Shown one piece after another: positions 1 to 64,000 of a stretch of 64,000 nt of DNA; position 1 is the first letter of the stretch; every line of letters begins with the position of its first letter. A program made the translations under genes and the position numbers. The notes beneath the pieces were generated by a model. It made no database searches, had not been told where the DNA came from, and saw nothing but the letters and a program-made list of their open reading frames with translations. The DNA is from Psammoneis japonica (taxonomy: Eukaryota): contig QPGO01000028.1 of assembly GCA_008632985.1 (NCBI GenBank), positions 305,598 to 369,597 on the forward strand, given 5' to 3'.

Positions 1-2218
1 GCAGTGTGACAAAGCTCATGGATGATCTGAATTGTGCACCCGCTGTGCCAAATTGCAAAGGTGCAGCAGTGGCTGTCTGTTGAAGCAGCACCTCAATGTG
101 TTGAAGGCAGAGCATTGTTGACATCTTGGCTGAAGGCAATGGCAAAGCATGGGGTGGGTCCATGCTTGTTTGGGAGTTGCCAGATCTGCCACCACCAAAC
201 TGCAAAGGTGTGGCAGTGGATGGCTGTCTGGGCAGTGTCTCAACATGTCAGAGGTGGTGTTGGCACCATGGCTGAAGGCCAGGTCCTGGCATGGGGTGGG
301 TCCCTGTGCCTTTGCCAGGTGGGCTTGTTGGAGAGCAAATGGTGCAACCAGCCTTCCTGAGTGCTGGGTCTGTTCACACCCACCTGCCCCTCTCCCACAT
401 GTGCTCCATCCCTCTGCATCTCAACACATTGGGGGCACTCTTGATTGGTTTTTCCAACAAACTTTGATGCCAATGAGCATCTCATGGTTGCATGCAAGCC
501 ACACCACTGCCATCCAAAATGATGCTGATTTTGCACAAATCTGGTTCGCGCAGCTGGCAGAAGCCAACATTCACACACCTTTCATTCATCTTGCTGCCAT
601 GAGAATGTGCCTTGAAATCATTGGCACAACAGACAACTGTGTTCTTGAACAGTGCAGGTTGTGACATGTCTCAGTTTTGCTTCCTGGGAGTTTTTCACAG
701 CAGTGCCTCACCTCCTGGGTGTGCAGGAAAGGTGCTCCTCCTCATCTGTCATCTTAGAGAGCTGTTTCCGATCCTTGCACCCAATCTCCTGTGCATGACA
801 AGAGTGTCATTCACTGAGCAATGCTTTTGTCCTTTCTTTGAATGGTGGCAAAAAAGAACAATGCTCTTCGGGGCAAGTGTTTGTGCAAAATGCATGAGTC
901 CACACCTTGCACTGCCAACATGCACTGTTGAACATGCACATTTCCAAGTTGCGTGCAACAAGCTGCAGTGCAGCACAATGGTGCATGATGATGCATGCTG
1001 CCGGTGTCTCACTTTGCAGCATGACCTCTCAACAATGCTTTCACCTGTTGCCCTGTTTCTTGTTTCCTTCTCAATGACAACATTGCGGTGCATCCCACAA
1101 GCTTGGTCCCATTGTGCATCAATGAGCTTTGTCCAAAAAATCTTGTCACTGGCAAGTTGGACAGTCAGCACATTGACAACAGAATGGAAGACAAAAACAT
1201 TTTTGACAACACCAAACACTTTTTAACTGACTGAGCCAGTCTGTGCTGCTCATCACATGATGGAGTGGCAAGTCCAATTTCACCATCAATCACCTCACCA
1301 TCACCGTTGTCTTCACCACCATCAACTGCACCTGTGTCAGAGTGCACTGCTTGCAACACCTCCTCTTGGACCACTTCTTTGGGTGCAGTGCCACCTGATT
1401 CTGAAGACTGAATCTTGGCTTTGAGCTTTGAAACTGAGTCATCATGCTTTTTGCTTTTGTCAGGATTGATCTCCACAATCACAAAATGATGTGGCACACA
1501 AGTCCTTTTTGCACAGTTTCCTGATGTCACCATTCTTCTCCTGCAATTTTGCCTTTGCAGCTGGAAGCAGCTCTTGCAGCTTGGCTCTCATTTCTTCTTT
1601 CTTGTTTGCATCTTCCAATCATTCCAGCCATTTGAATCATTCATCATGAGAAGCAAAAAACTTCAACCAGTTTGGCCTGTGTTCATGAGGCACACTCACA
1701 ATTCCACATTGACCCCCCATCATTCCAATCATGTTGAGACATTTTGCTGTCATTTTGACACTTTGTCCCATTGCTCCAGCATCTTTTTTACCTCTCTCAA
1801 TGTCACATCATTGGCAGCAAGGGCTGCAATCTTCTTTTGAGCATCACCCAAGTCTGCACCAAGATGTGCAGAAGGTTCACAAGATGCATTGCATCCATGC
1901 TTGGGATCTCAATGATGAAACTCAACATGCACAAAGAGATCTTTGCCTTTGACTCTTAATTTGTCTGGAACAAGCTGGAAATGTAAGAGGCCATGGTTTG
2001 CATCCTTTGCTGCCTTGTGTGCTGCTGCAACTTCTGGGTTGGTCATGGCACATTGCATCTGATTCTCAGACAGAGCTGTCATGTCTCAAGATGCTCCAGA
2101 TTCTCTTTTGCTGCTTTGTGGCAAACTCTCAATTGCTGGTGGTCCTTCAAGAGAATCTTGAATGTCCTCAGCAGGCTCTAGATGATGCACTCAAGAGTGA
2201 ATCCTCCATGCAAGTCAA

Positions 2219-3955
2219 TCAAGGGCACAACTCCTTTCTTGTTTTGAGGAGTTGTGCCATGCCACCATGATGGCAGGAGCAGGCACTTGTCAATGTGTGT
2301 GATTCTTCTGCCGTGAAGCTTTCTCCAGCTTGAAGAAATGGTTCAATCCTCTTGCAGTGCTCAGGAAATGAGACATGAGTCCTTGGATCCAAACCAACTT
2401 GTGAGAAGGATTTGGCCCATGTTTCTTCAGTGGCACCATGCAGAATGTGTGAACCAATGTTGATGGTGAGATCCCACTGATCCACTGCCACTCCCTTGCT
2501 GATTTGTGCACTTCTGTGTGACCCAAGCCCATCATGCTTTCGATCTTTGTTGCTGGCTGCTGCCAATTGATCATGTGATTGACTGGCATGTGATGTGCCA
2601 CCTTCTTGTTTCAATGGTGCAACCTTGTTTTACCAATGGCATTCCATGGCTTCCAATGAAGAGAAGTGTGGGCCAAACCCATCAAGAATCTTCAGCATCT
2701 GCCACCACAGGTTGGCTGCCACTGTCAGATGCACACTTGTTCTGTGACCTGACACAACAGCAGGAGTCATTTTTGCCTGCACTTCTTCTGTCATGAAAGC
2801 AGTCAAGGTCATGATGATTGTGGAGCCTTTTGCAGCATCCCACTTTCTAAGATGCACATCTGGCACACCCGGCATGCCTCCTCTCTCTGGCAAGAACAAA
2901 AACAGCAGGGCCCTGGCCTCCAGCAGCAGTTCCCACATGACAAACCAATGTTGACACACTGGAGTCATGCAAAATTTTCTCATGTTTCTTTTTGCTGGCA
3001 GAACCAACAATGCAGATGTTTCCATTCAACACAGTGAAGCAAGACTTGTCCCCTGTCTGAACAAAATGCTGAGAGCGACCTCTCCAAAAAGCTTGCCCAT
3101 CATCCCACAGTGACCAACATTCCTGCTCTTGAGAAAGTTCAAAGAATTCTCATCCTTTGTAAACCAGCAATGCTGACCAGCTGTTGCAGCTGCAGTTGGT
3201 TTGGTTGTTGTTGCTTGAGCCTTTTGTTCTTTCTTTTTGACAGTTTCTGAATGATTTGGCTGCAGCAGTGTCCTTTGGAGGTGGTCTGTTGCACTCTTGC
3301 AGCTTTTTACATCAAGGCATGCTGCTGGCTCAACTGCCAGATCAACACATTTGGTTTTTGAAAGTCCATGGTTGGCTCTGCAGAGCTCAGCAATTGATTG
3401 CTCAATCACCTCTGGGGATGTTGCGTCGACAATCAGCTTTCTTCTCTGGTGCTTTTGCCAGTCTGATGTCATTTTGCAGGTCATTGTTGACACACTTTCT
3501 GAAGGCATTGATTGGCACTCCAACAACATTGGCAAATGCACTTCCATTGAATGAGCTTCTCCATTGCCATCTCAATGCTGGTCCTTCTTGCCAAGCCACT
3601 CATTCACTGCATCCATCATGATTGACAGATGAGGCTTCTTGTGCCAATTCGTCCTTGGTTTCTTTGCTGCAATGGACTCATCACTCTTGCCACCATCCAC
3701 CAATGCACTTCTTGTCTTGATCATTCTTGGCTGCAGCAGTCTTCTTGCCAGACCCTTTCTTTGTTGTCTTGAGCACAGCAGAAAGTTTCTCGTCAACTCT
3801 GGGGCAGCGCTGCTGGCAGCACCCTGCACAAGCATTGCTTTCTTCTTCTTTGGATGACCACAACACTTGTTTTTTAAGAAAAAGTCAGTTGCAAAAGAAA
3901 GCTTTGCCTTTTTTGCATTTTTCTGTGTTTTGAGAGGCTTTGAAGGTGGTGCCAT
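2219..3955 (-). mobile_element. Degenerate pogo/Tc1-mariner-type (DDE_1-like) transposase, frameshifted
   Basis: Minus-strand fragments from MAPPSKPLK (ATG 3955) through ILDGFGPH (~2664-2690) and GTSHASQSHDQ resemble the DDE_1 LDG.xSH ... TSHxxQxxD motifs. Multiple frameshifts; 3' limit uncertain. Confidence 0.55.
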
Positions 3956-4589
3956 GGTTGATCTTTGAAAGAAAAATGAGGCACCAAATCTTGGTGGCAT
4001 CCCACACACCGGCAGAAATCAGTGTTGTTTCTGCTGCATGTGTGACACAAAATTGCCTTGGTGTGCAACATTGATCCCATCATCAGTCATGTGGAACATT
4101 TTTAGAGGGACAAAAAATGACAACAACATGCAGAAATTTGGAGTTGCACAATTTTTTTTTGTGGCCAGGAGCACAATGAGATCTTTCATTTGCGCACGTC
4201 AAAAGGGCAAGAAAATGGAAAATTGAAGTTTTTTCAGGTCTGCATTTCTTGGCTCAAATTGCATGACTCTTGCAGCAGCCAGCTTTTACAGCATCACAGA
4301 GCAGCAGGTGTGGCAGCAAGCAACTGTGGAAAACAGAACAGAAAATGGCAAGGTCAGCCTGGGTCAGCCCATTGCTTGTTCTGTCAAGTGCCTTTTCTTG
4401 CAACTCATTGTGAAATCACATCTCACCTTTGCCAAGGATCAACATCCTCCATTCAAGGTCTCTCTTAATTTTTTCACCATTGTGCACACTGTTCACAAGC
4501 ATGTGTTGTGTTGTGCAACAACAGAAGTGGCAGCCACTGCAAGGATTGTCCTCACTTCCAAAACAAGAGGCTTGCAATCAGACAAACAG

Positions 4590-4850
4590 CAAGAACAAGT
4601 CTTTCAACAAGCAAAGCAATCCCTGCCAGCATGGCTGTTCAAGATGGAATTCATGCACATGTTGTCCATGGAAGCAGCAAAGAAAATTCCTGACCAAAGC
4701 TTGGATTTTGCACACATTGATGCTCACCATGATTGTTGCGGTGTGTCAAGGAAGATGTTGAAGCTTTCCACCCACCAAAGCTTTGACTGGGTGGCATGTT
4801 GGCAGGCCACAATTTCTTGAATGCAGATGAAGTTTCAGCAGACCAACTGC
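4590..4850 (+). pseudogene. Class I SAM-dependent methyltransferase (Methyltransf_24-like) fragment
   Basis: DQSLDFAHIDAHHDCCGV followed, after a frameshift, by GMLAGHNF resembles the SLDFVYIDARHDY...GGILAGHDY motif with Y->H and Y->C changes. Confidence 0.6.
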
Positions 4851-5205
4851 TGTCTGCAGTCAGACTGTGTGAGGATGACAGAGAGACTCTTTGGACAGAC
4901 AAGCAGCTCTTTCTCTCTTGCCAGTGCTCGTGTCATCCACCATTGCCAGTTTGCAGGGAGCTCTTTGGCTCATTGCTCTTGCCATTGGTGCTCTGTCAGG
5001 TTGTGGCCTCATCATTTCATTGTTCCTCTGCTTTGAAACTCCCACTGTGGTTCATTTGGTTTGTGAGCTGAACAAGCATGCCACCATTTTTGATCCTGGA
5101 ACAGAGTTTTTCACGATGCCAAAGACAATTTTCTGGTTTCTGGGCTGCAGAATCACACTGAGCTCTGTGTGTTTTTTGGTCAAGAATCATTGCACCGATC
5201 TCACC

Positions 5206-8200
5206 ATGGCACACCTCACTCCCAAAAAGGGCACCATTGACACCCTTGCCAAGATCTCTGTGGCATTCAAACCACACCCTTGCCAACAAAACACAACTGA
5301 GCATCTGAATGGCTTGCACGGTGGCTCTGTCATCAATCTGGATCAGTTCTTTGACAACAACAAACATGATGCACAATCAAAAGATGGTGTTGTTGACCTC
5401 CTTGCTGACCATGTCATTCAAGCAACAATCCTTCAGGAGACTGCGCACCCCCCCACAGAGAAGCTTCCGGTTGCACACTTGATTGACAAGTCCCCCATGT
5501 GCATCACCACTGGGACTGCAGATGACTCGCTGTCTTGTCTTTCATGTCAGATGTCAGATCACAAGACCAGGACTGCTCTCAAGATCAAGCATGCAAAAGC
5601 AATCATTGCAGTCAACCCCAGGAACATTCATTTCAATCCCAACATGAAACATTCTCACCAGGATTGGAGTGAGTTCTCTGACACACCCCACATCTGCAAA
5701 TGCATGCACCAAAAACCCCACCGCCATTGTTCACAAGTTCAAGTGGAGTCAAAACTCTCCCTGATGATGATCCTGTGAAATCATGTTGAGATCAGGGGAG
5801 AGAAGAGGAACCCGTTGAGCCATTTGAACAGGAACATTCCAATTGTCCCAAGGAATCAGGATTTGCTGCCCTCAACTCCATCCATGTGTCTCTGTCCATC
5901 CCTTCATGGACATCTCCCAATGTCACTTTTGACACCAAATGCAAGATTTTTGACGTCAATGCCATCAAATTTTTGTCCAATGAACACTGTGCACAGTTTG
6001 ACACTGGTGCCTGTGTCTCCTGTGCAGGTGACCAAAATCTCCCACACAACTGCCAGGCTTTTACACTCAATGACCCGTGTCCCCTCAAGATCAATCCGGC
6101 ACTTGGTGGTGCTGCTGTTCCCATGGCTTTGGTCACTTGTGTGTCCCAGCTGCAACCAAGGAAAGCAACATTGCTGTCCATGCATGCTGTCATCCCAAGC
6201 CCCAATCAACTTTGGTGGTCAAGCAGGCTTTCCACACAGCCAATGGTGGATGCAAACAAGATTTCATGGCAGATTGTGTTTGCTGAAATTTCACAATCAA
6301 GGAACCTGTGAGTGTGTTGCAAAACATTGCCTTTGCAAGGCTCAAGACATCATCACATCCATGGTCAACTTGTCAGTGGCAAGTGTTTGACCCATTCTTT
6401 GATCCTCCCAGAATTGGTGAGACATGCTTGACACAGCAACATTGGAGCTCAAGACTCTGCTGACCACAAGTTTGCTGAGGAATGTGATGCCATGGTGGCA
6501 TGTGTGATCAACACCTGCAAAGAGAACCAAGTGAATGCCATGAAAGAACAATGCAAGCTCATCCCCCAAGTCCACCAAGACATTCCCTTCAAGATGCCCC
6601 TTGAGAACAAAGTGCCCATCAGTCCAATCCCTCAAGGCTGATGTGGGGTGCATGCTCTGGCATCAATGCCTTGGCCTTCCCAGTGATCACCACTTGTGCA
6701 ATGCCTGCAAATGTGTCAAGGGTGTTCCCAAGCTTGCTCATAGAAAATCTTCTTTGGATGCTTGTCCTGCTTGCATTTGAGTGAAACAGACAAAGAGCCC
6801 TGCTGGTCCCAACTCCACCCGCACCACGACCCAGCCCCATCAAGGTCTGGCAGTGGATTTTGCATTTTCCAGCATCAAGTTTTGAAGAATGAAGAATGTG
6901 CTGTGGATTGTGTTGGCCTCAATGGGGAAACTCATTGGATTCTTGTCTGCTGTGATTGCTGCACCCATCATCTCCATGTCTCTGCTCATGTCTCCAAGGC
7001 TTCTCCAATCAAATGGATTTGCCATTTTTTGGAGGACCACTTGCCAAAATGTCAAGATGAATGTGTGTTTGTGGATCAAGATGGGAAGTTGTACAGAAAC
7101 CCAGCAGTGCAAAGACTTTTTGAACATGACTTTTGGTGTGACATGCACCCAACTGGCATTGGTGCCTCTCACCAAAATGGCCCCATTGAATGTGGCCACT
7201 TGACTGTGCAGAATGCTGTTTGAGCACTCCTCATTGGAGCAGGTTTGCCCATCAAGTTTTGGCCTTGTGCTTTCTGCCATTACACTGGCATCAAGAATGC
7301 AATCCCTTCAAAAGATCAGGATGTCTCCCCTGCTGCTCTTGCCACACAGGACAGGTTGAAGACTCCACTGGTTTTTGTGCCTTCAGATGCCATGTTTGGG
7401 CTTGCAAGAACACCAAGCACCCTGCAAAGATGCGGGACAACTCTGCCAAAGACATTTCCCTGGAGTGCATGCCGGATGCAACCAAGAACAATGTGTGGCA
7501 TAATCCCGCATCTGACCTTGTCAAGATGGAAATGCATTTTTGTTTTGACAAAGGTGTGAGTGATGTTCCCCATGACCAAATGCTGCCAAATGTCATTCTT
7601 CTTCAGCAGATGCAGAATGGTGAACCGTTTCCGGCCAAGGAAGAAGAAACTTCTGTCAAACAGCTCCACTTTGCTGGCAAACCTTTTGCTGAGATGCTTC
7701 AGTGCAACATGCAATGGTCTGCATTGGATCCAAAGCATGGTGTGACCTTCAAGACTGACAAGCTCTTCAACCATGCTTGCTTCTCCAATGTCAAGTGTGG
7801 CAGCTCTGTGGCTCATTTGTTCTCCTCTCTCTTCAAGGCTGCTTGGGACAAGATCTGAGGTGTGTGTGTTGCACCCATTGATGCCACGGATGTTTTCGCA
7901 CAACAGCAGGTCAAACAAGATGAACTCCAATGCCTGTGCAATGCTGACACTCCCTCCTTTGACATTGTTTTTGCACTGGAATGATGCCTTGACTCCCATC
8001 AGCTCCAACATGCCTTGATTGAACATGACACATTCTTGCCTCCTCCTCTGGAAGATGAAGAACATGTTGCTGAGCTGACAATGGCAGATGCACGCATTGT
8101 TGCAGCCTTGCACCATTTTCCTGATGTTGACTTCTCAGTCTTGGATGATGTGGAACCCAAATCTGCACCAACAACAGACCATGAACAGGGTGCTTTCAAC

Positions 8201-8785
8201 ATTTCTGTGATCTCATCTCATGCCATTGCACCAGAAGAGCACGCTCTGGACAGTTTTGCTTGCAACAGCTTAAGAAACTGCCTCTGCGGAACAAGTGGCA
8301 TGAGGGTGAATTCACCCAGCTTGATCATTTTCATGCTCTTGGAATGTTTGGTGCACCAATTGAACAACTGAAGGGTGCGATTGCACTCTGGCTGCATTGG
8401 CAATGCAATGTCAAGACAGATGGAACTTCATGCTCTCACCATTGCTGTGACAGTTCCTCATGTGCTGCTCCTGCTTCACATTGTCTCCAGTCTGTCCACT
8501 CCTCCTGCATGGAACAACTGACTCAGCATTTGTTTTTTGCACTCTTGGCATCACAATGGGATGTTGAGTGCATTCTGGTGATGCACAAGATGCACATGCA
8601 TGCTCACCCAGTCCTTCAACACTGGCACATGTTCAGATCAACAAGGCTCATGCCACTTGGAGCAAGGATTGTTTTGGCATTGATTCAGATGATTGGTCCA
8701 TGGTGCTGCCAATCCCACATGCCTTACAAGGACACCTTGAGCCAGGGGCACTCGGGGAGAACAATGTCAACAAGATCATCATGGA
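5206..8785 (+). mobile_element. Degenerate Ty1/Copia gag-pol (diatom CoDi-like), 3'-truncated
   Basis: Protease-like FDTGA (~5997). Integrase core VDQDGKLY...PTGIGASHQNGPIE..H (~7070-7200). RT N-terminal part GDAQDAH..SP and VLPIPHALQGH.E.G (~8570-8760). Order PR-IN-RT is Copia. Confidence 0.85.
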
Positions 8786-9525
8786 TGAGCCACAGCCTTC
8801 ATGACACTGGAGACCAGCCAGACAACACCACTTGAGACCAGCTGGACAATGCCACTTGAGACTAGCCAGGCAGTGCCATTCAAGTCCAGACATGTGCTGA
8901 TCAAGAGGACATGCCACTTGAGACTGGCCAGATGATGCCACTTGAGACCAGACATTTGCTGCTGCTTGAGACAATGCGCCACTCAAGACTGGCCAGATGA
9001 CACCAGTGGCCAGACGATGCCACTTGATGCTGGCTAGATGACACCATTGGAGACTGGAAATTTGCTGCTGGAGACAACACCATCAATGTTCGTTGCAACA
9101 ATGAATTCCAGCCTGCATTGGGCCTGAGCTCAAAGACAAGTTTGATCTCACAACAGATGTCAGGAGAAGCAGCTGATCCTTCTGAGCCACAGCCTTCATG
9201 CCGCTGGAGACCAGCTGGACAATGCCACTTGAGACCAGCCAGGCAATGCCATTCAAGACCAGACATGTGCTGATCAAGAGGACATGCCACTTGAGACTGG
9301 CCAGATGATGCCACTTGAGACCAGACATTTGCTGCTGCTTGAGACAACACGCCACTCAAGACTGGCCAGATGACACCAGTGGCCAGACGATGCCACTCGA
9401 TGCTGGCTGTAGATGACACCATTCAAGACTGGAAATTTGCTGCTGGAGACAACACCATCAACGTTCATTGCAACAATGAATTCCAGCCTGCATTGGGCCT
9501 GAGCTCAAAGACAAGTTTGATCTTA
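8786..9525. repeat. Two-copy ~370-400 bp duplication built from a 24-bp minisatellite (unit ~CCACTTGAGACCAGCTGGACAATG)
   Basis: 8786-9150 is repeated at 9184-9525. Each copy holds several 24-bp units and ends in a ~60-bp piece of the family-A integrase (matches 29790-29848). Confidence 0.9.
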
Positions 9526-10731
9526 TGACAAACTGCACAAGTGCTCAGGAACATGCCCCAGAAGCCAAAAGGAACAACCGTGTCATTTGGGAACACACCA
9601 GGGCAGTCCATCATCAACTGCCATTCAAGCATCTTCCAAAACTCATGGTCAAAGTCATCATCACTGAAGCTGCCAGAAAGCTCAATCAATTTCCAGCCAA
9701 GCATGGCATTTCAAAATGCTGCAGTCCAAGAATGATTCTCCATCAAAAGAATCTTGACTGTGACAAGAGCTGCAAGGTTGCATTTCACACTTGCATGCAG
9801 GCTTGCAATGACCCGGACATGGAACACCCAAGAGTTGAGGACCCTGGATTGCATTCATTTGCACCCCACCAACAGCAACCAGGTCTCAGACACAAGGTGC
9901 TGCACTTGCACACAGGCAAGAAGAGATCACCCATTGCAAGGTCACCCCTGTGCCCATCACTCCCTCCATCATCAAACGAGTTCATCAATTGGCTGAACTG
10001 AACCAGATGCCCCATGGTCTCAAGATTGAGAACCACACTGGAATCATTTTGTACGACACTGCTTGGCTTGCAGGAGTGGATTGTGATGAAGAAGACATTG
10101 AAACAGAGGATGACAAGGACAAAGAACTGGACTGGGGAGAGTGTGACAAAGTCAGCCAAGAAGAGCAACAAGAAATCATTCAAGATCAAGAATTGGATGA
10201 AGAAGCCAGCTTCATTGACATGAAACCAGGAGAAATGCCCCAAGATGTGCATCTGGAAGAAAATGATGAAGTTGCTTCTCAACTGTCTGATGGGGGTGGA
10301 ATCTCCAAAGAAATCAATGAAATGATTGAGCTCTTTGATCAGAATCAAAACAAGGAAGTCTCTCTAGAAGTGCAAGAGCTCATTGACAAAATGCAAGAGC
10401 CGGAATCCAAAGAAGCGAACACAGCAAGGAGCAGAGTGAATCCAAAGAGAGTGATGAGGAAGAGCCTGCTGCCACATCAAGATCAAGAAGGACTCTGAAA
10501 CCTCCAATTGGATTTGGTGACTGCCTATGTCATCTGCAGACTCAAGCTCACACCAAAGTTGAAGAGTGCAGTCTGGAGACAGCCAGAATCATGACCACAA
10601 CAATGTGCCAATGGAACAAGAATTTCAGCATGATTTCCACTGTTGAGTGAAGCCAGCAATTTGCTCAGACTTGCAGCTTGGCACAAGGACTCCAGAAGTT
10701 TGGAGAATCAGGCTGCAAGTCAGCCGTGTCA
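9525..10731 (+). mobile_element. Copia family A fragment (integrase C-half to start of RT)
   Basis: Clear nucleotide homology to ~29850-31107 (AQEHAPEAKRNNRV, PITPSIIKRVHQLAE, QTCSLAQGLQKFG). Confidence 0.9.
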
Positions 10732-12318
10732 TGTGCATGCCAGCCCAGCCTGAAACAGTGGATTTCATTCCAGTGGATTCTCTTGCAGAGGAGTTGGCAA
10801 CACTGGCATCATCACTTGCTTGAGCATTGCTGGCTTCTTGCTTGGCCTTGGCCTTGTTGATGGCCTGCTCTGCTTGAGGTTTTCCATGCATCTCCCAGCA
10901 GTTGTTGGAATGATGCCCCCCTTTCTGCAGCAGTGACACTTGCCTTCTAACTGAGCAAAGGACAGGGTGAGTTCTTGGTTTTCCTCCTTTTCCATGGATT
11001 CAGAGCTGTTGCTCCAATTGTTCTTGTTTTGGTTGTTGTTGGTCTTGCCAACACAGTTGAGCTTGTGGTTGCTCAACACAGAGTTGGCTTCCACAATGGA
11101 CTTGGGACATTGGTCATTTCTGAGCAACTCTGCTGGGTGTTCAATCCTGTCAGAATGGAACCGCATTTACGTTGATCTGCACTCTCCAAGCAAATGCAGC
11201 CCATCAACTGGCTGAACACCTGTTCTTGACACGTCTTGACAGCATCTGCATCATTTTCATTGCAGTCAGACATTCCTTCTGCCACTTTAGTGAGGATGAT
11301 TGGTCCTCCAATGTGAGACTTCATGATGTCTCTTGTGACCCTGAATTGCTTGGTGTGGTCTTGGAGACTCTCTTTCTCCTTCTGTTTGGTTCTGATCATG
11401 GCTCTTGCAGAATCTAAAATGATTGCCATGTTGCATCTGTGCTCTTGACAATTCAATGCATGCTCCTGAATTGCCTTGAGCAGCTCAATGGGGTTGGGTT
11501 GTTCTCAATCTTGGTCTCAAAGTCAGATCTTGCCTGGATCTTGTTCTTCATTGCCTTGGAGCACCTCTCCCAGAGCAAAGGATGAGCCTTGATCAGGTTG
11601 TTCTCACAAGTCTAGGTTCTTTTGATGTGAGCATTGAATTGCATCTTGAACTCAATTTTGTGCTGCTTGTTCAATGATGGCACATCAATCTTCTTGTCTC
11701 CTGTTGAGCTGACCTCAAGAGTCAGCTTCTTGAATTTCATGTCGCATGGAGTGTAAGTCTTGAGTGCAGCTGCAATGTCACCTCCAAACTCACAAGTTTT
11801 CTTGATGTGTTTTAAGATGAATTCAATTGCAATCTAAAAATCGGGTGCTTGCTTGGCACTCCCAATGCAGTGAACGCAATCGTTGATGCTCTTTGTGGCC
11901 TTTCTTGCCACTCTTGTTTCCTCTTCCATGGGATCCTCTTCCCTGGCTTCTGTTGCCAACTCTGCCTCTGCCTCTTCCACTCATGATGAAATGGCAAAGC
12001 AGCAAAACATCTCACACACAGCAACAATGACTCTTTTCTTTTTTCTTTCTTTTCAGCTGGATTGCTCTCTTTTAACTGTTGATTTTCACCCTTCTGGTGA
12101 CTGTTTCAGAGCCACCTCAGTCCTCCATGGTCGTCTGATCCTGAGGGCAAAATGGACAAGCTTGTTGTCACAATGCTTTCTAAGAGTTAAAAGAGAACAC
12201 AATGACTGCTTCTGTGGCAGTCCACATGCTTCACGTGGAGCACATGAGTGCTGACGCGCACGTCTTCTTTGCACCATCTAATTTCAACACATGAGCCGTT
12301 AAATCTTGTTTTCCAACA
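10732..12318 (-). mobile_element. Copia family A 5' fragment (5' LTR 12077-12318, leader, gag), inverted
   Basis: Reverse complement of 12077-12318 is a TGTTGG...CAACA LTR homologous to 27466-27703. Gag MSGRGRGR..., RTKQKEKESLQDHTK..., SFAQLEGKCHCC is homologous to 27806-28930. Confidence 0.9.
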
Positions 12319-53554: not shown

Positions 53555-55464
53555 ACTGTCACTTCCACTTGCATTGGATCTCATCATTTTAACAAAGCTG
53601 CAAATCAAATGAGCCAACACCATGGTGACACCCAAAGCCAGCTGAGGAGTGCCGGTGCTCTGGTGTCAAGTTCCCCCCCCCCGCTGCCACAGCAGACCTG
53701 TCAGCATGCTGCACATTTCCACCAATGCTTGCAGGCACTTTGTTCCCAGCCACTTTTGCCAACCAGCAGAGAATCTCTTTGAGCCAAGGGCATGACCCCA
53801 TTCTCTGCCATTTGCTTGAGTGCTCATTTCAAAAAGTGCCAAAGCCACTCCAGATTTTTGTTGGCTTGCACTGTTGCAGTGTGCAGCACAAACATGTTGG
53901 CCACCAGATCTTCCTGCACTCATTCACAACACTCCTCAGCATGCACAAAGACTGCAATCTTGTTTGCATTGTAGAGTGTCAGAGAAAAACCAGCAGCCAT
54001 CAGATTCAAATGAGTGACACCTCAGTGACACCCTCCAGTGGGCGGACCATGAGTTTCTAGAGCTGTCTCACAACACAACAACAGAGCATTGTTGTGGTGA
54101 TCTGCCATGACATGAACAGCCTTGTCAATCTCTCACATGCAGCAACAACAATTTGAGTTGGGGCCCTTCTTCCAAAATGTGGGCAGTGACCAGGAGCAGA
54201 GCTCATGAGTGCAAAAATCTTGCTCTGCAAAAGTGAGCCCAAACTGTTGTTGATGGACTTCACTTTGTGCAGGCCACAATTGTCAAGGTGGTGAAGCAGG
54301 TGCAGAGGAGGGTTGATGCTTCTGTCAAACTCAAGTCCTGTTAGAACAAAAAACACCACGCACTCAATTTTGGCAAATTGACTGAGCCAGTTGGGCTGCA
54401 ATGACCCACCAGTCATGGGAACACCCGGGAAAGCCACTTTCCAATCTTCTTCCAACAGTTTCCCAACTTTTGCCAAGCGAGGTGTGCAGCACTTGGTGCT
54501 GGCATCAAATTGGGGGAGAGAGACTCCACTCTCTCTTTGTTTGCCATTGTGGTCACTGCCAGAGGAGTCAACTGTCACACTGCAGTTGATTTGCTGCAAT
54601 CTCGCAAGTCACCCAGCTCAACTCCATGTGGGTGGGCACCAATGTTCTCCAACAACTTGACATCTGCACCCAGACAAGTGGCCTCAAAGCAGTGCCATGG
54701 CTCATTGACAAATCATGCTGTGACATGCTTTTGTGCTTGCCAGTGAGAGCCCATGATCACCAAAGCCAAATTTGCTTTGGCTCCTTGGCCCTTCATTGTG
54801 GGCAACTGTTCTTGTGCACAAAGGAAGCTGGTTTTCCTGAACAGATGAGATTCAAAAATTATCTGCCAGTGCAAACAAAACATCTCCGCACTGCAATCAG
54901 TGCAAGTGTCAAAACAGTGTTTCCATCACAGCTTCATTGCTGGCAGGAACAAGCTCTGCATTTGGCAGAAAATGCCCCTCCAATGAAGCCCAGCTCTGCT
55001 CTCTGCCTGCAGGTGTGTGATGATGCCTCCCAAGTTGAGCATTGTCTCTCCAAACATTGTCATTGCTGGCCACACAATGTTGTCAGGTTTGTGGTCTGTT
55101 GTGCCATTGTCATTTGTTTTGTTTCACTCTTGCCTGGCAGATGCAGTGTGCCATTCCTTGGTGCAACAGAAATGACAAGCACATTGTGAATGTGGGTTCC
55201 ATTCCTTTGGTTTCAGCTGTGCTGGCAGAAAACCCAAATGAAAACAACATTTCCTCACACACTGCCCCGTTGACCCTGGTTGTTGTGCACATGGCAGGAA
55301 GGTGCTGTTGCCACATCATTGAGCAAGACTTGTTGAGAAGCTGTGTGGCCTGGAAGATTGCCACAGAGCCAAGGGATTTCCTCTCTCCACAAACCAAGGC
55401 ATTTGTGGAGGAGTTGACTTCATGAGAACAGTTTGAGAAAAAGATGCCGCCAGCCAGAGTCTCA

Positions 55465-55800
55465 CAATTCATTGAAGTTTGCATCAAAAAGTGGCTCGCC
55501 ATTTTGAGTGGAAAGCTGTGTCATGGCACCACTGCTCCAAACACATCGGCATGCTTGGAGACAGGATGGCATTGAACTTCATGCTCAGCACCTCCCAGTT
55601 CTTGAACCGCCATTCATTGCACCCCTCCTGTCTGGCATGAGCAAGCCTCTGCAAAATCTTCTGGGTTCTTGACAAAACTGCCAGGGCACTTTGCACAGAT
55701 GGGCAACTCACCCACACACCCATCATCAGTTTCCATGTGTTTGCCCTCATCACGTTCTATTTTCAATGCCACCAGCAGGGAGCAGTGATTCCACAAAGTT
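55465..55800 (-). mobile_element. DDE_Tnp_4-like (Harbinger/ISL2EU-type) transposase C-terminal relic
   Basis: ETDDGCVGE.P..KCP, ARQEGCNE.RFKNWEVL and QNGEPLF fragments across frames. Confidence 0.55.
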
Positions 55801-56188
55801 TCCAGGTTTCCCGCAAATCCAAAGTTGCACACCCGGGTGTTTTGTCAAAAATGTGTGGTGCAACAATTGTGCCCCTGTCATTGTGCAACAGAAAATGTGT
55901 GAAAAAATGTCATTTTCACAAGCTCTTTGTGCAGAGACATGCCAGGTCATGCCATTTTTCCATTGGTCTGCAATTTGTGTCTTGCTTGTTTGGTGGCCAT
56001 CTCACAAAAACCAGAGTGCTGCGGCTCCAAATGATCACAACAACAGCAGCCCATGACAAGTGCCATGAGCAATGCTGGGGCCACTTGTTGGACAAAAGAT
56101 CATGTCAAAAAGCTTGCACAACTTGTCAAAGATTGCAAGCTTGTTGCTTCATGACATGGCACACATCAAAAAAGCATGTGACAAGCAC

Positions 56189-56588
56189 GTGACGCGTTCC
56201 AGCCCTAGGTGGGAGCTCGTAGTACTGACGTGTGACACAAATAATTTTTATCATCCGTCGTATGTTTCGCACGTACATTTCCACGTGTGATATTTAAAAA
56301 AAAATGTCCAGACTTGCTGTTTTGCGAAGCCCCAGACGTTTTACATGACGCATTTATAGAAACAATAATGCGCCAGTTACATTCTTCAATGTCTGAAGAA
56401 TGTAACTGGCTAAGTAAAAATCGATGTACTTCAATCATGTGCGAGTTTGTGCGTTCGCAAAATTGCCTCATTTTCTGTTGGCGAACATTGACATTCTAAT
56501 TACCGTATAATTTTACTACGGAGCTCGCACGTAGAATTCTGCGGGCCCAATGTCACACGGATTCCCACCTACGTCTGGAACGCGTCAC
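56189..56588. mobile_element. Young MITE-like element
   Basis: Inverted termini GTGACGCGTTCCAG.C.TAGGTGGGA / TCCCACCTACGTCTGGAACGCGTCAC. Rich in TpA and CpG, unlike its flanks. Confidence 0.75.
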
Positions 56589-58714
56589 TTCAGCAAAATT
56601 CCGAAGTTTCAAACTTTCACACAAACTTGCCGCAAGAAGTGTTGGCAGTGGGAAATTGACCAAATCCTTTGAGGCAATTGGAGTGGCAAGAAAAAGCACA
56701 TTTGTGCCCACTGTTCTGTTGTTTTGTTCATCTTGTGCTCACACCATCATCTTTCCACTTTGACTTGCATGACTCAGGTGCCAAGCAAAATGCCGAGGAC
56801 ATTGTGGCAGACACACAAGAGATGCTGAGTTGAACAAAGATGAGGAGCATGACTGCAAATCCTCAGAAAACAAAGAAGAGTGCTTCTCCAGCAACAAGGA
56901 AGCTGCCACCAGCATGCCGGGCAAGACCAAGACAATGCAAGATGTGGGTGGTGACTTTGCATCAAAGCTCAAGTCATCTGCCACAATTTCATTGTCTGGC
57001 AAGACAAAGTCAAGGAATGACAAGAAGGCAGGTGCTCTTCATTGTTGCCACAGGTGGCATCCAACAAGCACATGTGCATTGCTGTGGATGTCCTTGTGCC
57101 ACCTTTTGCCACATCACACTGGATTGAATCTGAAGGTGTCTGAACACTGGTTGTGGGGCAAAGGTCACAAACAATGAGCACATCTCCAGTTGGACATTTG
57201 AGAAGGGTCATTTGTGTGACTCTGTTCTTGCTTCTGAGCTGCCTTTGGATGACCAAGTTCTGAAGGAAAGCAAAACCAAGCAAGCTGGGCAAGAGCTGCT
57301 CAAGTCCCAACAAGGCATTGAAGAGACCATTGGCAACGGCAAAGGCTCGTGGTTGCCCACACACTGCTTGCCTCCCATTCCCCTGCAAGACTGATTTTTG
57401 TTCTGCTGGCAGCAAGGCTGGCTGGAAGTGCTCAATGTGTTCATTCATGACAACAAAGAGCTTGTGGAGCAAGTGCAAGGGTGCACACACTCCTTTCCAT
57501 TCAGCTCAGTGTGGCAGTGGAGAGGCCTTCAGAAGAAGGCCATGCGGCTGAAAAATCAAATTTCTTGGCCAGTCTCCTCTGGATGCTGCAACTGCCAAGA
57601 AGGAAACAAGAGGGAGCATCACAAGGCAAGCTGTGAATGCTTGGTGGTGGCAGCGGAGGGACTCAGCTCACGCGACGACATCGCTTTGAACTCTGAGGAA
57701 TGCGCGAGTGAGGGCAAACTCAAAGACGACAAAATGAGCACTTTCAAAGTCACAGCAGTTGTTCTGTTCAGGTGGCAAAACAGCACAGTTTGCACTCTCT
57801 GGTCTCACACTCACAGATGCAAGTCGGCTCGGATGTGTGCTGGCATTTCATGTTGTCATCACATTCCAGCAATGCACACATTCGAATTGTTTTCATGCCG
57901 ACATCAGACCGCACGGCACATGTGCATTGTGTTCTGGCACATTTCTGCAAGATTTCTGTCCGTTTTTTGCCACAATCCGCGATTTCCCACAGAGCCTGTG
58001 CCGCGCAGAGCCAGTGGGAACTTCATCTGGAAACTGGTGCCGTGCGCAGCGGTTCTGTCTGGACTTTGTCAGGGCACTGCAAAAAACACTTTTTGGAAAA
58101 CATAAAAAAAAAACGCACACCATGACAAGCGCCATCGACGCGTCATCTTGCAGCTCCACTGAAATGACGCTTGCGGCTCTCACACATGATGCACACAATC
58201 TGAGAGTGTTCAAGTGACTGTTGAACTTCCAAGATTGTTGAGAGATGGCACCGTCATCCAATTGTGCGCAGTTGAATGGGGTCACCGATGCAATGCACCA
58301 AATGCTGTTCCATCGTACAATTGGACCGAAGAGAGGCAAATGATGCTGATTGATGCTGCAAACAGCTTGTCAATCGTCACTGCACTCAAGTTGGAATGTG
58401 ATGGAGGCGCAACACCACACCACACAGCTGGTCATGACACGAGTTGGCGCACCGTTTTCAAGAAGGTTCAAAGTTTTGTTGAGATGGATGCCACCGAGCA
58501 GAAGCTGGAGAAAAAACGCTAGAGCAAGATGCCGCGATGGGAGAAAAACACACATGAGCAACGACTTCGCATTTTGATGGATCAAAAGGCTGCAATTGAA
58601 ACCAAGCTTGCTCCAGTTGACAACAGAGCTGCGGCATTGCCGCGAGCAGTTTCACCCATGCTGGACACTGCTGCGGAACAAACCGCGCGTGTTGCAGGAA
58701 GTGGTGTGGACTGA

Positions 58715-60846
58715 TGTGAGAACATGCATGTGTTCATGCATCAGTGTGCCATCAAGTCCTGTGTGTGACAATGGCCGCTCAGAAACCGCCATCAACCACC
58801 ATCAACGACTCACCCAATCACAGCTCGAGAAATGAATGAGATCGGAGGTCTTGGGTTTAAATCGAGAATTGAGCCTCACTTCTTCTTTTCTTTTGTGCAA
58901 TCAAGAACTTCTCGTTCCTGCTGAGTCTTTTCACTGCGTTCATCTGTGTTGAGTTTGGTGCAAACACGGGTCACTTCTCGTTCTTTACAAATTCTTGTTG
59001 GTTGTCGAGTGGAGCAGTTTTGTTCTCACAATTTAGCGACTGGTCAATTTGCACCTCCTAAATTGTCCATTGTTGCTGTTTCTATCTCTACAGCGTAAAC
59101 TGCCGCATGCCCACACGCTTCCTCTGCACTGTGGAGACCTGACTTGGTTCAAAATTGTTGCAGAAACCAGAGCCCAATGTCGTGGACACCGAAACGATGA
59201 CATCATGAACGCCGAACAGATCGCAGCCGCGATTGCTGCAGCCATTCCGGCCACCATCCAACCTCTCATTGACGCCCAGAACAACCCTCCAGCTGGCAAC
59301 TTCGCTCGCTCACCAGCCTCAGCCCATGATGCACTGCTTGACTGCAGTCGCCGAGGCGATGCCGACGCATCCAAGACAGCCACTGAACCTCTTCCGACCA
59401 CGTTCAACACCCAGAAGCCTGACATCCGTGCATTGCTCAATGAACTTCGTACAAGGTCCGAAGCTTTTGGTTGGAACAACATCCCAATGATCAACGTCAA
59501 TGAGGGAGCAGCTGATGCCGCTGCTGAAAACCGGAACATGCTCACATCCTACGGAAGCATCACACCGGAACAGATCTGCACGGTGTCCGCCACCTGCACA
59601 AACGGGCAGAATCGCGAAACCCAGAACAACTGTCAGCCATGCCAGTGCCTTCACAACTTGGTGGATGAAGCTGCCAAGCAAGTTGTGGCCAACGAATCCG
59701 AGCAGTGTCGCGTCGGAGACACGGATTGCGGGGCATTGTACCTCAAAATCCCACTCTCGAAGGCCGAGATTGACACTCGCACTGCAGCCTCCCACATCCG
59801 CTCCGAGCTTGCATCCTTGGACAAGCACATGGTCGACACAGCCAACCATGACATCAAGGCATTCAACGAGCACGTGAGGGACCGGATTAAATCCCTGTCA
59901 AGCCGAGGAGAGACGTCCAACAATCTCATCACGAACCCATTCAAGGGACATGCAGCGTGCATGGACAAGAACTTCACCAAGCACATGGAGAAAATCAACG
60001 ACGACTGCGACGATGGAGTCGACATTGCCCATGAGCAACTCATGATTCGCGCCAAGAAGAAATGTCAAGCTCTCGTCCTCAACAAAAAGTGGAGCGAACC
60101 AACCGAGGAACAAGCGCAAATTGTCGCTCTTTGCGCCAAAGTCAACGACCTCCGGAACCAACGCTCGCACAGGTCACCCCAGCAGTCATCGGGCCAGAAA
60201 CCTTCCAACGCCAGCCAGGCCAAGAAGTCCTCAAATGCCACCAAACGCAAGAAAGGTGAAAAACCGAAATTCAAAGGAAAATGGACTTGGCGCGACGTCA
60301 AACCTCAGCCCGGAGAACCCAAGGTGAAGACCTTTGAGGGAGAAGAATGGAAGTGTTGCAACTTCCACAAGTGATGGGGACAGCACTTGAGCAAGGACTG
60401 CCGTGCAAAGCAGAAAGCTGACAACCGGAACTCCGGCAACCCAAACCAGCTGACGTCCGACGGCTCTCACCGCTTCCATGGCGAACATCGGCATCAATGA
60501 CGTGACGGGACAGGCCCAAGACGAATGAAGGTGGCGGTCAGGTTTGGAGATGATCTGCACCATGTTGCTTGTTGCACTGTTTGTGATCTTGGCTTGCACT
60601 GATGAAATTGTGGACACCACTCTGATGAAAGTAATTCCCATCGCAGCCAACGTGATTGGCAGTGCATGTGATCTGCTGTGCTCCTTGTCTGACTTAGCCA
60701 AGCCCCTCTGCTTCAACCTCGAACCCAAGCCCAGAGTCCGAAGACCCCAGAGTCGGTGCAAGCGAGGCTCCACTTGCCGCCAATGACATGTCCGACGCAA
60801 ACGTGGAGCATGTGTCATGCACAAAGTCGTCGAGGTCCATGTGACC
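58715..60846 (+). mobile_element. Copia family C 5' part: candidate LTR (58715-59030) and gag
   Basis: TGTGAGAACA...TGTTCTCACA inverted ends. Gag-like ORF from 59205 (FARSPA..LLDC, FGW, QNNCQ, IDTR, SRGET, FKGH, W..P..GEPK.K...KCC.FH.W..H...C). Interrupted by the Gypsy LTR. Confidence 0.7.
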
Positions 60847-63445
60847 TGTGAGCCGGTTGTCGGATTGCCCCACGCATGTGCTGGGTGCTGAAAAGAAGAT
60901 GTGTTGCGACTTTGTTGTTGTGAAAATTGTGAGCCAGTTTAGAGTGGAGAAAGTGGGATCATGCGAATGGGGAATCTTGCCAAATTCCCATTCGTTCGCA
61001 TTTGGATTGCATCAAATCGATCGTGCGTTCGCATTGTGGATCGTGCGAATCAAGCCATCACGCGCTGTGCACGAGTGATGTCATCGTGTGGAATCACGCT
61101 GCCATCGTGGGCCAGACGACGGGCCAGTGTGCTTCACACGGATGCTCTCTCAGCATCCTTCTGGAATTGCCTGAGACCTGGAGCCATGCCCTCCTGTGGT
61201 CATGCTTCCCAGGCACGCGTTGACAATGCTGCGTTGCCACGTGCAAGAGGCTCATGCACGGTCTCGCCGTGTTGTCCAGCAGCGAGGCATGCTGCACACT
61301 CCCCCATGATCAGGGCCGTCAAGTGACAGGATGTTTCACTGGTGACAGGGCACAATCTGCCGTAGATTGCACGCATCTGTCAGTGCTCCGTTCTGGGTGC
61401 GCAACGTGCCGTTGTCACATGCACTCATGGGTTTCTTCAAAATCCCACAGTCATTTTTAATCATCTGGCTGAATTCTGCCATAAATTCTGTCCCACGGTC
61501 ATAAACCACCTGGGTTGGCCACGGACATCTGCATGGCCACGTTTGTTCCACGACGTTTGCTGCGACGTCTGCGCGTTTCGTAGACACTTCTTCAATCTCG
61601 AACCACCCGGTTGCTGGGTCAATCATTGTGACTGCCCACAACTGCAAAGTGTCCTTTCCGCGTCTTTGAATTTTATGTGGCCCCATCACACCCATGCATG
61701 GAGTCTCCCATGGAATTATCTCGGCGACCTTTTCTGGCAGCTTCCCATGACGCTGCATTCGGCGTTTTGTCTTCTGGCATTGATCGCACTCAACGCACAT
61801 GGAATGCACCGTAGACCTCACACTGGGCCAGCAGAAGTGCTGGGCAATGGACATTTCCGCACGTGTCTCACCTGGATGACACAGTGTCTCGTGGTGCCAT
61901 TCAGTTGGCGGAACCTGCAATGACTGTGGCACTGCGATTTTGTCCTCATGACAGATTAACTGTCGTGATGACCCTCCCCCACGATGTGCGCGAATGGAGC
62001 AGTCGGACGAGTCCTTGGCTCGTGAAAGCAGGCGCTTGTCCTTTTGTTGTTCTTTTTGAATGCACTTGAAGCTAATGGGCAGAGACACGTCGTCTTGCGC
62101 GTCTGCATTAAAGGCTTCATGCAAAGGACGACTTGATGGAGTGTCTTTTACATCCGGATTGGCCTTGGAAGGCAAGCTGGGTGCCAGCCAAAGGCGACTA
62201 AGAGCGTCAGCGACTGGGTCATGGGCACCCTTGACATGGCGTAATTCGGGACCGCATTCTTCGCATGTCAACCGCCAGCGCACAACGCGCTCGGCATTGA
62301 ACACTTTGTGCGCAAGGTTTTTATGATCAGCACATGCAATTGTGCGATGACCAAGGAGAATCGTTCGAAATTCTTTCAACGTCTCCACAATGGCGAGCAA
62401 TTCTCTCTCCGTTGTTGCACAATTTAATTGCGCGCTGTTGAGCTTTCTGCTGCAAAAGGCGACAGGTTTGTTGTCTTGGGACACAACTGCTCCCAATTGA
62501 CATTTAGAGGCATCGGTGTGCATCTCAAAGGGTTCACTAAAATCAGGATGTGATGACAAAACATCATCCGACATCACCCGTTTGACGGTTTCGAATGCCT
62601 CGTCTTCAACGGACATCCACTCCCACCTGACAGTCTCGCTTGCGAGTCGTGTCAGCAGAGCCAAGACTTCAGAACGTCCAATCCACGTGTCACGGCAGCA
62701 CTTCACCATGCCAACAAATGAGCGCAGGTCGCATTCATTGGTTGGGGTTGCGACTCGCTTGATGGCATCGACTTCATTGGGTGTTGGTCGCACTCCGTCT
62801 CTGTTGACCAGATGACCCAAGCACTCCAATTGGGTTTGACAGAAGTGAGATTTAGTTGCATTGACTTTTAGCCCTGCTTTCTGGACCCTCAACAAAACTT
62901 CTTCAAGTTTGTTGAGGTGATCTTCGTGGGTGCCTTTCGTCACGACGAGAAGGTCATCTGAGCACGTTCGAATGAACGATGGATCTTCAAATGAGCCTGA
63001 CATGCGTTCTTGGAAAATGTCTGGCGAGTTGCACAATCCCATGGGCAATGCCTGCATCTCATGCTTGCCCCACGGGAAGATGAGCGTGCAGAGCTTCTTG
63101 CTGTCAGTGTCCAATCGGATGTGACAATGGCCCATGTTTAAATCCAGCGATGCAGCCCACATGAAGCCTTTGAGCTTGAGTGGCATGTCTTGGATGTGAG
63201 GAATCGGATGAGGCAATCACTTGATCCATTTGTTCAGCTCTCTGAAATCATCAACAAAGCGCACCGTTGAGTCTTTCTTCGGTGTGATGAATGATGGAGC
63301 TGCCCATTGGGATCGGTTGACGTGTTTGAGAACACCGATGCGCACTGGGCGTTCTACTTCTTTACGTAGCGCAGCTTTGTGTGCACGAGGTGCTTCACAC
63401 GGACGAGCGTGGCATGGTTCTACACCCTCCTTGAGTTGGACATGG
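60847..63445 (-). mobile_element. Ty3/Gypsy pol (RT-RNase H-integrase), PPT and probable 3' LTR (~60847-61296), degenerate
   Basis: WAAPSFITPKKD, DFRELNK, LDLNMGHCH, LPMGL, CSDDLL, TDASKCQLG, AFCSRKL, ERELL, DHKNL, ADALSRL, HPG, DRGTEF. Order RT-RH-IN is Gypsy. PPT GGGGGAGTG. Far LTR end is tentative. Confidence 0.92.
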
Positions 63446-64000
63446 AACGTGCACACCAGACACTTGGCAACATGGTGCGTTCCTTCTCAGCACAGGACAT
63501 GGAGCTGGACGAAGATGACTCATGGAGTGGCATCCTCTCCGCAGCAGCCTTCGCCATTGGGGCTACAGCACACACGACCACGCGTGCAAGTCGCGTGCAA
63601 TTGGTCTTCGGACGCGATGCGGTTTTGTCTGTTGCCCATCGTGCTAAGTGGAAACACATAGAAACCAGAAAGCAGAAGCTCATCCACTTAAATGACAAGC
63701 GTGAAAATCAGAAATGCAAGGAGCACCAACAAACCGCAGGGCAATTGGCACTTGTCAAACAGGAACAATCCTCTAAGTGCGGTTCTGACAGCTGTGCAGG
63801 ACCCGCCAGAGTTGTCCGTGTGTGTGACAATGGCACGTTGCGCATCCAGAACGGAGCGCTGACAGATGCGCACAATCTACGGCAGATTGCACCCCATCAC
63901 CAGCAAGACATCCTGTCACTTAACGGCCCTGATCATGGGGGAGTGTGCAGCATGCCTCGCCACTGGACAACACAGCGAGACCGTGCATGAGCCTCTTGTG
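63446..64000 (+). mobile_element. Gypsy integrase C-terminus, PPT and start of LTR (63946), inverted relative to the adjacent pol
   Basis: ERAHQTLGNM...WSGILSAAAFAI...QLVFGRD...GP..V..V.DNGT. 63820-63998 is an inverted copy of 61243-61423. Confidence 0.9.

Follow-up and report, generated by a model that had tools for sequence, protein, structure and literature searches.

To our knowledge, repeat-induced point mutation (RIP) of fungi, of which basidiomycete variants turn up in the literature, was until 2026 the sole well-characterised system in which transposons are hypermutated in place and in a specific sequence context. A 2026 preprint on the chlorarachniophyte alga Bigelowiella natans has since reported that two integrated viral regions had acquired 231 single-nucleotide mutations in mutation-accumulation lines, of which 230 were A-to-G or T-to-C changes, all at TpA (Mettrop et al., 10.64898/2026.01.13.699255). 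The targets there are an integrated giant virus and a virophage, mutated at ~6e-7 per site per generation, which is ~1000-fold over background and seen in some lines only. The preprint also counts 324 TpA-depleted coding sequences, enriched in reverse transcriptase (RT) and DDE domains, and proposes, but does not show, an ADAT2-like adenine deaminase. From its figures (211 mutations, 6,169 TpA and 3,132 generations) we computed ~1e-5 mutations per TpA per generation, a half-life of ~6e4 generations. Here we analyse 64,000 nucleotides of Psammoneis japonica (assembly GCA_008632985.1, contig QPGO01000028.1, positions 305,598 to 369,597; hereafter the window), for which an earlier note had proposed a TpA-directed hypermutation of transposable elements. 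We find that TpA has been almost eliminated from four transposon-rich blocks by conversion to TpG or CpA, and that two islands holding intact genes are spared.

Across the whole window, the ratio of observed to expected dinucleotides (O/E) is 0.23 for TA, 0.52 for CG, 1.59 for TG and 1.56 for CA. We counted TA by segment as observed over expected and assessed significance against 200 mononucleotide shuffles. The four depleted blocks, combining 52,495 of the 64,000 bp, hold 301 TpA against 3,335 expected from base composition: block 1 (1-20000; 93/1391, O/E 0.07), block 2 (27706-35000; 47/471, 0.10), block 3 (38401-56188; 112/1037, 0.11) and block 4 (56589-64000; 49/436, 0.11), with z = -24 to -47. 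Between them lie two TpA-normal islands, island 1 (20001-27705; 435/645, 0.67) and island 2 (35001-38400; 193/226, 0.85), together with a 400-bp insert resembling a miniature inverted-repeat transposable element (MITE-like insert, 56189-56588), an exception not mentioned in the earlier note, in which both TA (26/32) and CG (27/18) are normal. Block edges are sharp, spanning 100 bp or less; the interval 34901-35000, for example, has one TA and 35001-35100 has 12, while further inside block 2 the interval 33001-34300 has none. These counts bear out the description of TpA as nearly absent from the blocks and normal around the two intact genes.

CpG is lowered in the same places (O/E 0.16-0.72 in the depleted blocks, 1.08 in island 2), and TA O/E correlates with CpG O/E over 1-kb windows (Spearman 0.69). 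The two losses are not matched in amount, however, with block 1 at 0.07 for TA and 0.16 for CpG but block 3 at 0.11 and 0.60, a mild CpG depletion. TpA loss therefore saturates before CpG decay, and does so independently of its amount.

Low TA and low CG with an excess of TG and CA could come from CpG decay alone, so establishing polarity needed outgroups. We aligned the Gypsy RT-RNaseH-integrase open reading frame (ORF) of block 4 (61336-63216, minus strand; 626 aa; Pfam RVT_1, RT_RNaseH and Integrase_H2C2) with 120 homologues, defining a Tyr column as one with at least 70% Tyr. At 23 such columns the window ORF has Cys at 12, His at nine, Trp at one, Met at one and Tyr at none. At 19 of the 21 conserved Arg columns the ORF still has Arg, and thus the Cys and His residues did not arise from CGN codons. 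A single TA to TG/CA change, counted within a codon or across a codon border and including T-to-A, I-to-V/M/T and L-to-P/S replacements, accounts for 45 of the 98 replaced conserved residues, a single CG to TG/CA change for six, and neither for 47. The GH125 alpha-mannosidase ORF of island 2 (35874-37622, minus strand) served as a control: Tyr is kept at all 19 conserved Tyr columns and 193 of 204 conserved columns are unchanged, with no TA-type change among the 11 replaced.

Two further elements behave like the Gypsy ORF. At eight Tyr columns, the Copia family of block 2 (Copia-A) has four Cys, two His and two Phe, and at 16 columns the less depleted non-long-terminal-repeat retrotransposon of block 3 (long interspersed nuclear element, LINE) has six His, five Tyr, two Cys and one each of Trp, Asp and Phe. 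Arg occupies none of the 47 Tyr columns of the three elements. The direction of change is TA to TG/CA, as the earlier note had deduced from seven altered motifs. All seven are present, with KALCG and PCDPC in Copia-A and MGHCH, ECLGH and AFCSRKL in Gypsy; HVDD (44324) and GNAHL (44081), however, belong to a second Copia element and not to the ORF at 30.7-32.7 kb. The Tyr counts given there were also reproduced, with none in the Copia-A RT/RNase H ORF (30554-32662, plus strand; 702 aa stop-to-stop; RVT_2), one in the Gypsy ORF and 28 in GH125 (582 aa stop-to-stop).

A natively TA-poor composition was considered as a separate candidate and ruled out, all 120 Gypsy homologues having at least 2.9% Tyr against 0.16% in the window ORF.

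The pattern is distinct from RIP and from decay of 5-methylcytosine, in agreement with the earlier note. Like RIP, it consists of heavy, context-specific transitions that alter mobile DNA where it lies, has sharp edges, spares genes and works in the manner of a genome defence; unlike it, TpA is destroyed and TAA and TAG are removed, whereas RIP makes TpA from CpA and creates stops. Methyl-CpG decay is a second, separate process in the same blocks and converges on the same TG/CA products, but it cannot remove Tyr codons, and in the Gypsy ORF it is Tyr that has gone while Arg persists.

Repeats allowed the changes to be followed at the nucleotide level. Three repeat pairs were compared, each with one copy in or next to a TpA-normal island and the other inside a block. 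Where the TA-rich copies have TpA (51 sites), the TA-poor partners read TG or CA at 38, TA at 10, something else at three and CG at none, and two sites show the opposite polarity. One pair is a 243-bp direct repeat flanking Copia-A, whose upstream copy (27463-27705, plus strand) has kept 14 TA and is 91% identical to the downstream copy inside block 2 (32727-32969); nine sites are TA upstream and TG/CA downstream, with none in reverse. Another is a ~290-bp dispersed repeat with a gene-side copy at 35121-35402 (plus strand, 22 TA) and a partner in block 1 at 15584-15874 (minus strand, 4 TA), in which 18 sites are TA on the gene side and TG/CA in block 1, one is the reverse, and CG to TG/CA changes number 11 against no reversals.

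Counted per strand over the three pairs, A-to-G changes occur at 38/101 TpA, 9/160 ApA, 18/228 CpA and 5/111 GpA. The excess at TpA over all other contexts (32/499) is highly significant (Fisher p = 8e-15), so the restriction to TpA among A-to-G contexts, by which the earlier note had proposed that its reading be judged, is present. This count also bears on Pol eta-like Y-family polymerase error, an option raised by that note, in which WA would be changed to WG while transposon DNA that is methylated and deaminating undergoes repair. A hot spot at TpA and the co-occurring CpG decay would suit such a polymerase, whose signature motif is WA, but A-to-G changes are no more frequent at ApA (9/160) than at CpA and GpA combined (23/339, p = 0.70), and in block 3 the TA O/E has fallen to 0.11 where that of CpG remains at 0.60. 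We regard this option as highly improbable.

CG to TG/CA changes in the repeat pairs affect 15/66 per strand. The spectrum of the old copies is mixed, with 122 of 240 strand-counted substitutions being A>G/T>C and 68 being C>T/G>A, mostly at CpG. Over nine repeat pairs, double differences of TG against CA number 59, compared with 24 for the other seven double-transition classes, although part of the 59 may be CpG-derived.

The second Copia element (Copia-B) dates the changes relative to insertion. It is a single 14.7-kb long terminal repeat (LTR) retrotransposon insertion in block 3 (38834-53554, plus strand), with 245-bp LTRs at 38834-39078 and 53310-53554 that have TG..CA ends, and it is flanked on both sides by ACTGT (38829-38833 and 53555-53559), the 5-bp target-site duplication. 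The LTRs differ at 24 of 245 positions, and these differences include five TG/CA doubles, two TA singles, eight CpG singles and four other transitions. As the two LTRs were identical at insertion and now differ by TA-type changes, these changes occurred after integration.

Both DNA strands are hit, as the earlier note had stated. Over 46 Tyr columns, Cys (23) and His (18) are about equally frequent, and the 45 inferred events in the Gypsy ORF (27 TG-type and 18 CA-type) fall into 22 runs against 22.6 expected, showing that the outcomes are interspersed. The proportion of sites hit once is also informative, 38 of 51 being above the ceiling of 50% (binomial p = 3e-4) for one saturating round that hits the strands independently and would leave many sites as CG. 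Together with the lack of CG, this indicates that TpA was lost in small steps with replication between them. A first hit leaves no TpA on either strand, so the site becomes immune and TA never becomes CG. ADAR and APOBEC3 offer a likeness in being deaminase-type mutators of selfish elements, and ADAR shares the preference for a 5'-U (here T) neighbour (Discussion of 10.64898/2026.01.13.699255). They differ, however, in acting on RNA or single-stranded cDNA and in producing one-strand clusters per round, whereas here both strands are affected, in an interspersed manner and with one hit per site; APOBEC, moreover, alters C and not A.

We considered whether editing might have preceded integration, with retroelement RNA (by an ADAR-like activity with a 5'-U preference) or cDNA being edited during retrotransposition and mutated copies then inserted. 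All the recognisable victims (Copia, Gypsy and LINE) move via RNA, and the sole element bounded by terminal inverted repeats is unmutated. Copia-A also shows a gradient of TA loss, from the 14 TA kept in its upstream repeat through a 5' part with O/E ~0.2 to a 3' part at 0.06, and cDNA editing leaves gradients of this sort. Several observations speak against this explanation. The predominance of single hits with no CG is incompatible with saturating two-strand editing in one round, and the outcomes are strand-symmetric and interspersed rather than clustered by strand. The elements are dead (HVDD, no Tyr), which makes repeated autonomous cycles unlikely, and the Copia-B LTRs differ by TA-type changes. 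TA-free DNA also extends outside the Copia-B target-site duplication (38401-38833 and 53555-56188) and through the near-single-copy DNA at 33.0-35.0 kb. These TA-free flanks and the near-single-copy DNA, with the stepwise and symmetric loss, favour integrated duplex DNA as the substrate over RNA or cDNA. Likewise, the de novo mutations of B. natans appear in DNA viruses that have already integrated (10.64898/2026.01.13.699255). Editing before integration is therefore very unlikely.

The bases around TpA influence its fate. Only 41 of the 301 TpA surviving in the blocks are in ATA/TAT, compared with 281 of 628 outside (p = 2e-22). ATAT survives 0 times in the blocks and 44 times outside, and ATAC/GTAT twice against 64 times, while TTAA, CTAA and GTAA are over-represented among the survivors. 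An additive model roughly fits the ten context classes if, on each strand, the effect depends on which base lies two nucleotides 5' to the A that changes, A acting most strongly, then G, then C and T. It follows from this model that TAY codons vanish while some NTA and T-A junctions persist. By codon, TAC has given 13 Cys and five His and TAT 10 Cys and 13 His, a non-significant lean to the strand that reads ATA (p = 0.11).

This preference can be read in a second way. A thymine-directed process in place, in which an enzyme, perhaps of the TET/JBP type, oxidises or otherwise modifies the T of TpA (best in T-A-T) in silenced DNA, for instance into 5-hydroxymethyluracil or 5-formyluracil, which then mispairs with G to give T-to-C, would fit all the observations equally, since TA to CA on one strand is TA to TG on the other and since ATA/TAT is as readily a preference for a modified T in T-A-T. 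The hydroxymethyluracil of dinoflagellate DNA substitutes T preferentially at TpA. On the other side, the authors of the sole experimental study, that on B. natans, favour adenine deamination, without proof (10.64898/2026.01.13.699255). We consider thymine chemistry rather unlikely.

The changes have a marked effect on reading frames. On both strands of the blocks there are 241 TAA and 193 TAG (434 in all) against 2,562 TGA. By a TA to TG/CA change, TAA becomes CAA or TGA and TAG becomes CAG or TGG, and no new stop can arise. This removal of TAA and TAG without new stops explains the 37 ORFs of at least 200 aa in the window. Public proteins contain similar cases. When 146 Copia representatives were scored at 13 columns in which Tyr is the majority residue, six (P0262, P0359, P0354, P0257, P0300 and P0337) had Cys or His at no fewer than 40% of these columns, with a Tyr content of 0.2-1.9%; predicted proteins in public collections therefore already include what look like hypermutated elements of this kind. 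Scanning metagenomes with P0262 gave five loci, distant relatives at 44-54%, with TA O/E of 0.3-0.7 per 500 bp.

Pfam, homologue searches and tblastn place remnants of two Copia families, one Gypsy and one LINE in the depleted blocks. In block 1, tblastn located Copia-like remnants at 9439-10204 (plus strand) and 10873-11905 (minus strand), and the ORFs of the block have no Pfam domain. The Copia copy at 9.4-12.3 kb is partly inverted relative to Copia-A. In block 2, protein remnants of Copia-A cover 27890-28420 and 28776-32761 (plus strand); a target-site duplication was looked for and none was identified. Immediately within the element, fragments of the 243-bp repeat turn up again, some direct and some inverted (28425-28760, 27463-27705 and 12061-12285), and include a 203-bp palindrome at 28425-28627. 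The rest of block 2, at 33.0-35.0 kb, is the near-single-copy, TA-free DNA mentioned above (read-contig depth 88-101 at 33341-34674 against ~55).

The RT ORF of Copia-B (43595-45010, plus strand; RVT_2 E = 1e-21) carries the HVDD motif. Inside Copia-B, and on the same strand as its pol, lies the LINE remnant (46848-50556, plus strand, by tblastn). The LINE ORF at 47552-50026 encodes 824 aa with 10 Tyr, and its homologues contain RVT_1 and Exo_endo_phos domains, one of them being named as Fragilaria crotonensis. Copia-B also has long open frames without a family match at 49792-52017 and 52240-53208. In block 4, a second Gypsy fragment was located by tblastn at 63442-63906 (plus strand), and a look-up of ORF 59037-60371 in the Atlas matched unnamed clusters only.

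The Pfam scan covered 162 stop-to-stop ORFs of the window, including all 154 of at least 110 aa, and among these found no transposase domain. The earlier note had listed Copia, Gypsy, LINE and DNA transposons as affected; the first three hold, but for DNA transposons the claim is unconfirmed, no transposase domain having been found and the sole element bounded by terminal inverted repeats being unmutated. This element is the MITE-like insert, with 26-nt terminal inverted repeats that are 92% complementary and a 17-nt perfect hairpin at 56372-56410; its target-site duplication was looked for and none was recognised. The scan likewise found no deaminase domain in the window ORFs, consistent with the earlier statement that the causal gene is not in the window.

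The process is aimed at transposon-rich blocks and spares genes, as proposed, with O/E of 0.07-0.11 in the former against 0.67-0.85 in the islands. Repetition as such seems neither sufficient nor necessary as a trigger, which would be a further difference from fungal RIP. The deep repeats at 24003-25336 in island 1, with contig depth of 352-520 against ~55 for single copy (~6-9x, contig depth being a crude measure of copy number), keep normal TA, whereas the DNA at 33.3-34.7 kb, near-single-copy at its present depth, is TA-free. The ~290-bp repeat family is, in the same way, mutated in block 1 and intact beside GH125.

We also weighed an artefact, in which sequencing or assembly would systematically miscall some modified base that transposon DNA carries. 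Contigs from a public run of the same organism, at ~55x, match the gene parts without difference and are in 786 of 3,514 cases at least 99% alike to the window; of the words sampled from 29000-38900 they contain 0.75. The library type and platform of that run are not on record, and it may be the assembly's own data. None of the three runs listed is recorded as RNA. Paralogous copies show stable but differing outcomes, TG in one and CA in another, at the identical site; conflicting strand-specific miscalls should yield CG, which occurs at 0 of 51 sites; and the blocks carry the transversions and indels typical of old elements. An artefact is accordingly most improbable. In the same comparison, 33128-34612 differs from near-single-copy run contigs at five positions, all CpG exchanged with TpG/CpA and none at TpA, of which almost none is left there.

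Taken together, we put the probability of a real, DNA-level, in-place and TpA-specific hypermutation of mobile DNA at about 0.85. Its signature, direction, targeting, strand symmetry and stepwise one-hit course are established by the counts above. In the mechanism we favour, a host process would target integrated, silenced transposon blocks and convert TpA to TpG or CpA, acting on one strand of one site per hit over many cell generations until TpA was near zero. The rate would be highest at ATA/TAT and lowest at TTAA, genes and their immediate flanks would be spared, and the loss would outpace the decay of CpG also seen there. Elements die by missense, through Tyr to Cys or His and YVDD to HVDD changes, with their reading frames staying open, the opposite of RIP. 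Chemically, an enzyme may deaminate adenine within the duplex to hypoxanthine, which would be copied as G when the DNA is next replicated; to this step on its own we give slightly less than an even chance, and the statement as a whole, adenine chemistry included, stands in our judgement at even odds.

Several points weigh against this reading. TpA is self-complementary, so A-to-G and T-to-C are the same event and adenine and thymine chemistry are indistinguishable. No enzyme or gene for the process was observed, within the 64-kb window, and read support comes from one sample, possibly the assembly's own source. Most of 1-9 kb and 12-20 kb lacks a recognisable transposon protein. The polarised repeat pairs rest on the assumption that the TA-rich copy is ancestral-like, and ~2 of the five TG/CA doubles in the Copia-B LTRs are expected from CpG. 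The block edge at 27705/27706 coincides with the exact 3' end of the TA-rich copy of the 243-bp repeat, a coincidence not expected if chromatin position alone decided. Finally, the MITE-like insert is unmutated inside TA-free DNA. Its state may mean that the process is episodic or extinct, or that position alone does not govern it. A recent arrival of the insert would also explain it, and would imply that the local process is slow, intermittent or no longer active.

The islands themselves hold two intact, intron-free ORFs. That of island 1 (20068-22437, plus strand; 789 aa, 22 Tyr) has GT34 (PF05637) and IRX15/GXM (PF21729) domains by Pfam. A GT34 (GMA12/MNN10) domain is fused there to a C-terminal IRX15/GXM (DUF579-type) domain, an unusual combination for a cell-wall/glycan enzyme, and the likely start is a Met ahead of a hydrophobic anchor, ~97 codons in. 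After this ORF, island 1 consists of AT-rich DNA with short dispersed repeats, which are also present in the GH125 flank (35739-35969), and this TA-normal spacer has young tandem duplications at 22344-22971 (318 bp, 98.7%) and 25713-26077 (183 bp, 97.8%). The GH125 ORF of island 2 (PF06824, E = 3e-101) has diatoms as its closest named relatives, namely Amphora coffeaeformis and Seminavis robusta (63% identity) and Nitzschia inconspicua (56%), the top database match overall being at 67%. With the F. crotonensis match of the LINE, these relatives make a diatom the most likely host. No tRNA genes or Rfam families were found in the 64-kb window.

The comparison with B. natans is close. In both, TpA alone is hit and becomes TpG or CpA according to strand, the effect is confined to foreign or mobile DNA, and the long-term footprint is low TpA with high CpA and TpG, which in B. 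natans includes RT and DDE domain sequences. By analogy, the process in the window is probably of the same kind as that measured de novo there, and at a B. natans-like rate the saturation seen in the window would easily be reached. The two cases differ in host, B. natans being a rhizarian and the present organism most likely a diatom (a stramenopile), and in degree, with the retrotransposon blocks near saturation (O/E 0.07-0.11) and the nucleocytoplasmic large DNA virus region of B. natans partial (rho 0.45). The preference for ATA/TAT over TTAA, the single hit per site and the coupling to CpG decay were seen here, and searching the main text of the preprint by terms turned up no trinucleotide or flanking-base analysis. 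Nor do the terms 'diatom' and 'other species' appear in that main text (10.64898/2026.01.13.699255). No prior report of TpA loss in diatom transposons was found in the literature searched, the coverage of which excludes most subscription journals. The novelty implied by the earlier note was thus overstated, as the preprint already describes this kind of mutation; as far as our searches reach, the window offers its first sighting in a diatom-like genome and at retrotransposon saturation.

We tentatively suggest that diatoms and chlorarachniophytes share an enzyme system, a natural base editor of adenine (or thymine) in duplex DNA at (A)TpA, guided by silencing marks, which would constitute an ancient or horizontally spread 'anti-RIP' defence of algae of the stramenopile-alveolate-rhizarian (SAR) group. 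Candidate enzymes are the deaminase-SAM-Tudor proteins that Iyer et al. (2011; PMC3239186) report as specific to stramenopiles. Any candidate has to account for one hit per site, action on both strands, the preference for ATA/TAT over TTAA and the absence of an effect at ApA, and the search for it becomes a comparison of algal genomes with and without the footprint. Should an enzyme able to edit A:T pairs within the double helix indeed occur in nature, it would be of interest to genome engineers. For annotation, the consequence is that such blocks yield many long Tyr-free ORFs that gene callers report as proteins. For the biology of these algae, a second group, distantly related and dominant ecologically, now shows the same signature, with its retrotransposons saturated. 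This places transposons, and not viruses alone, among the main targets, and what was known from a single strain becomes a possible defence across SAR.

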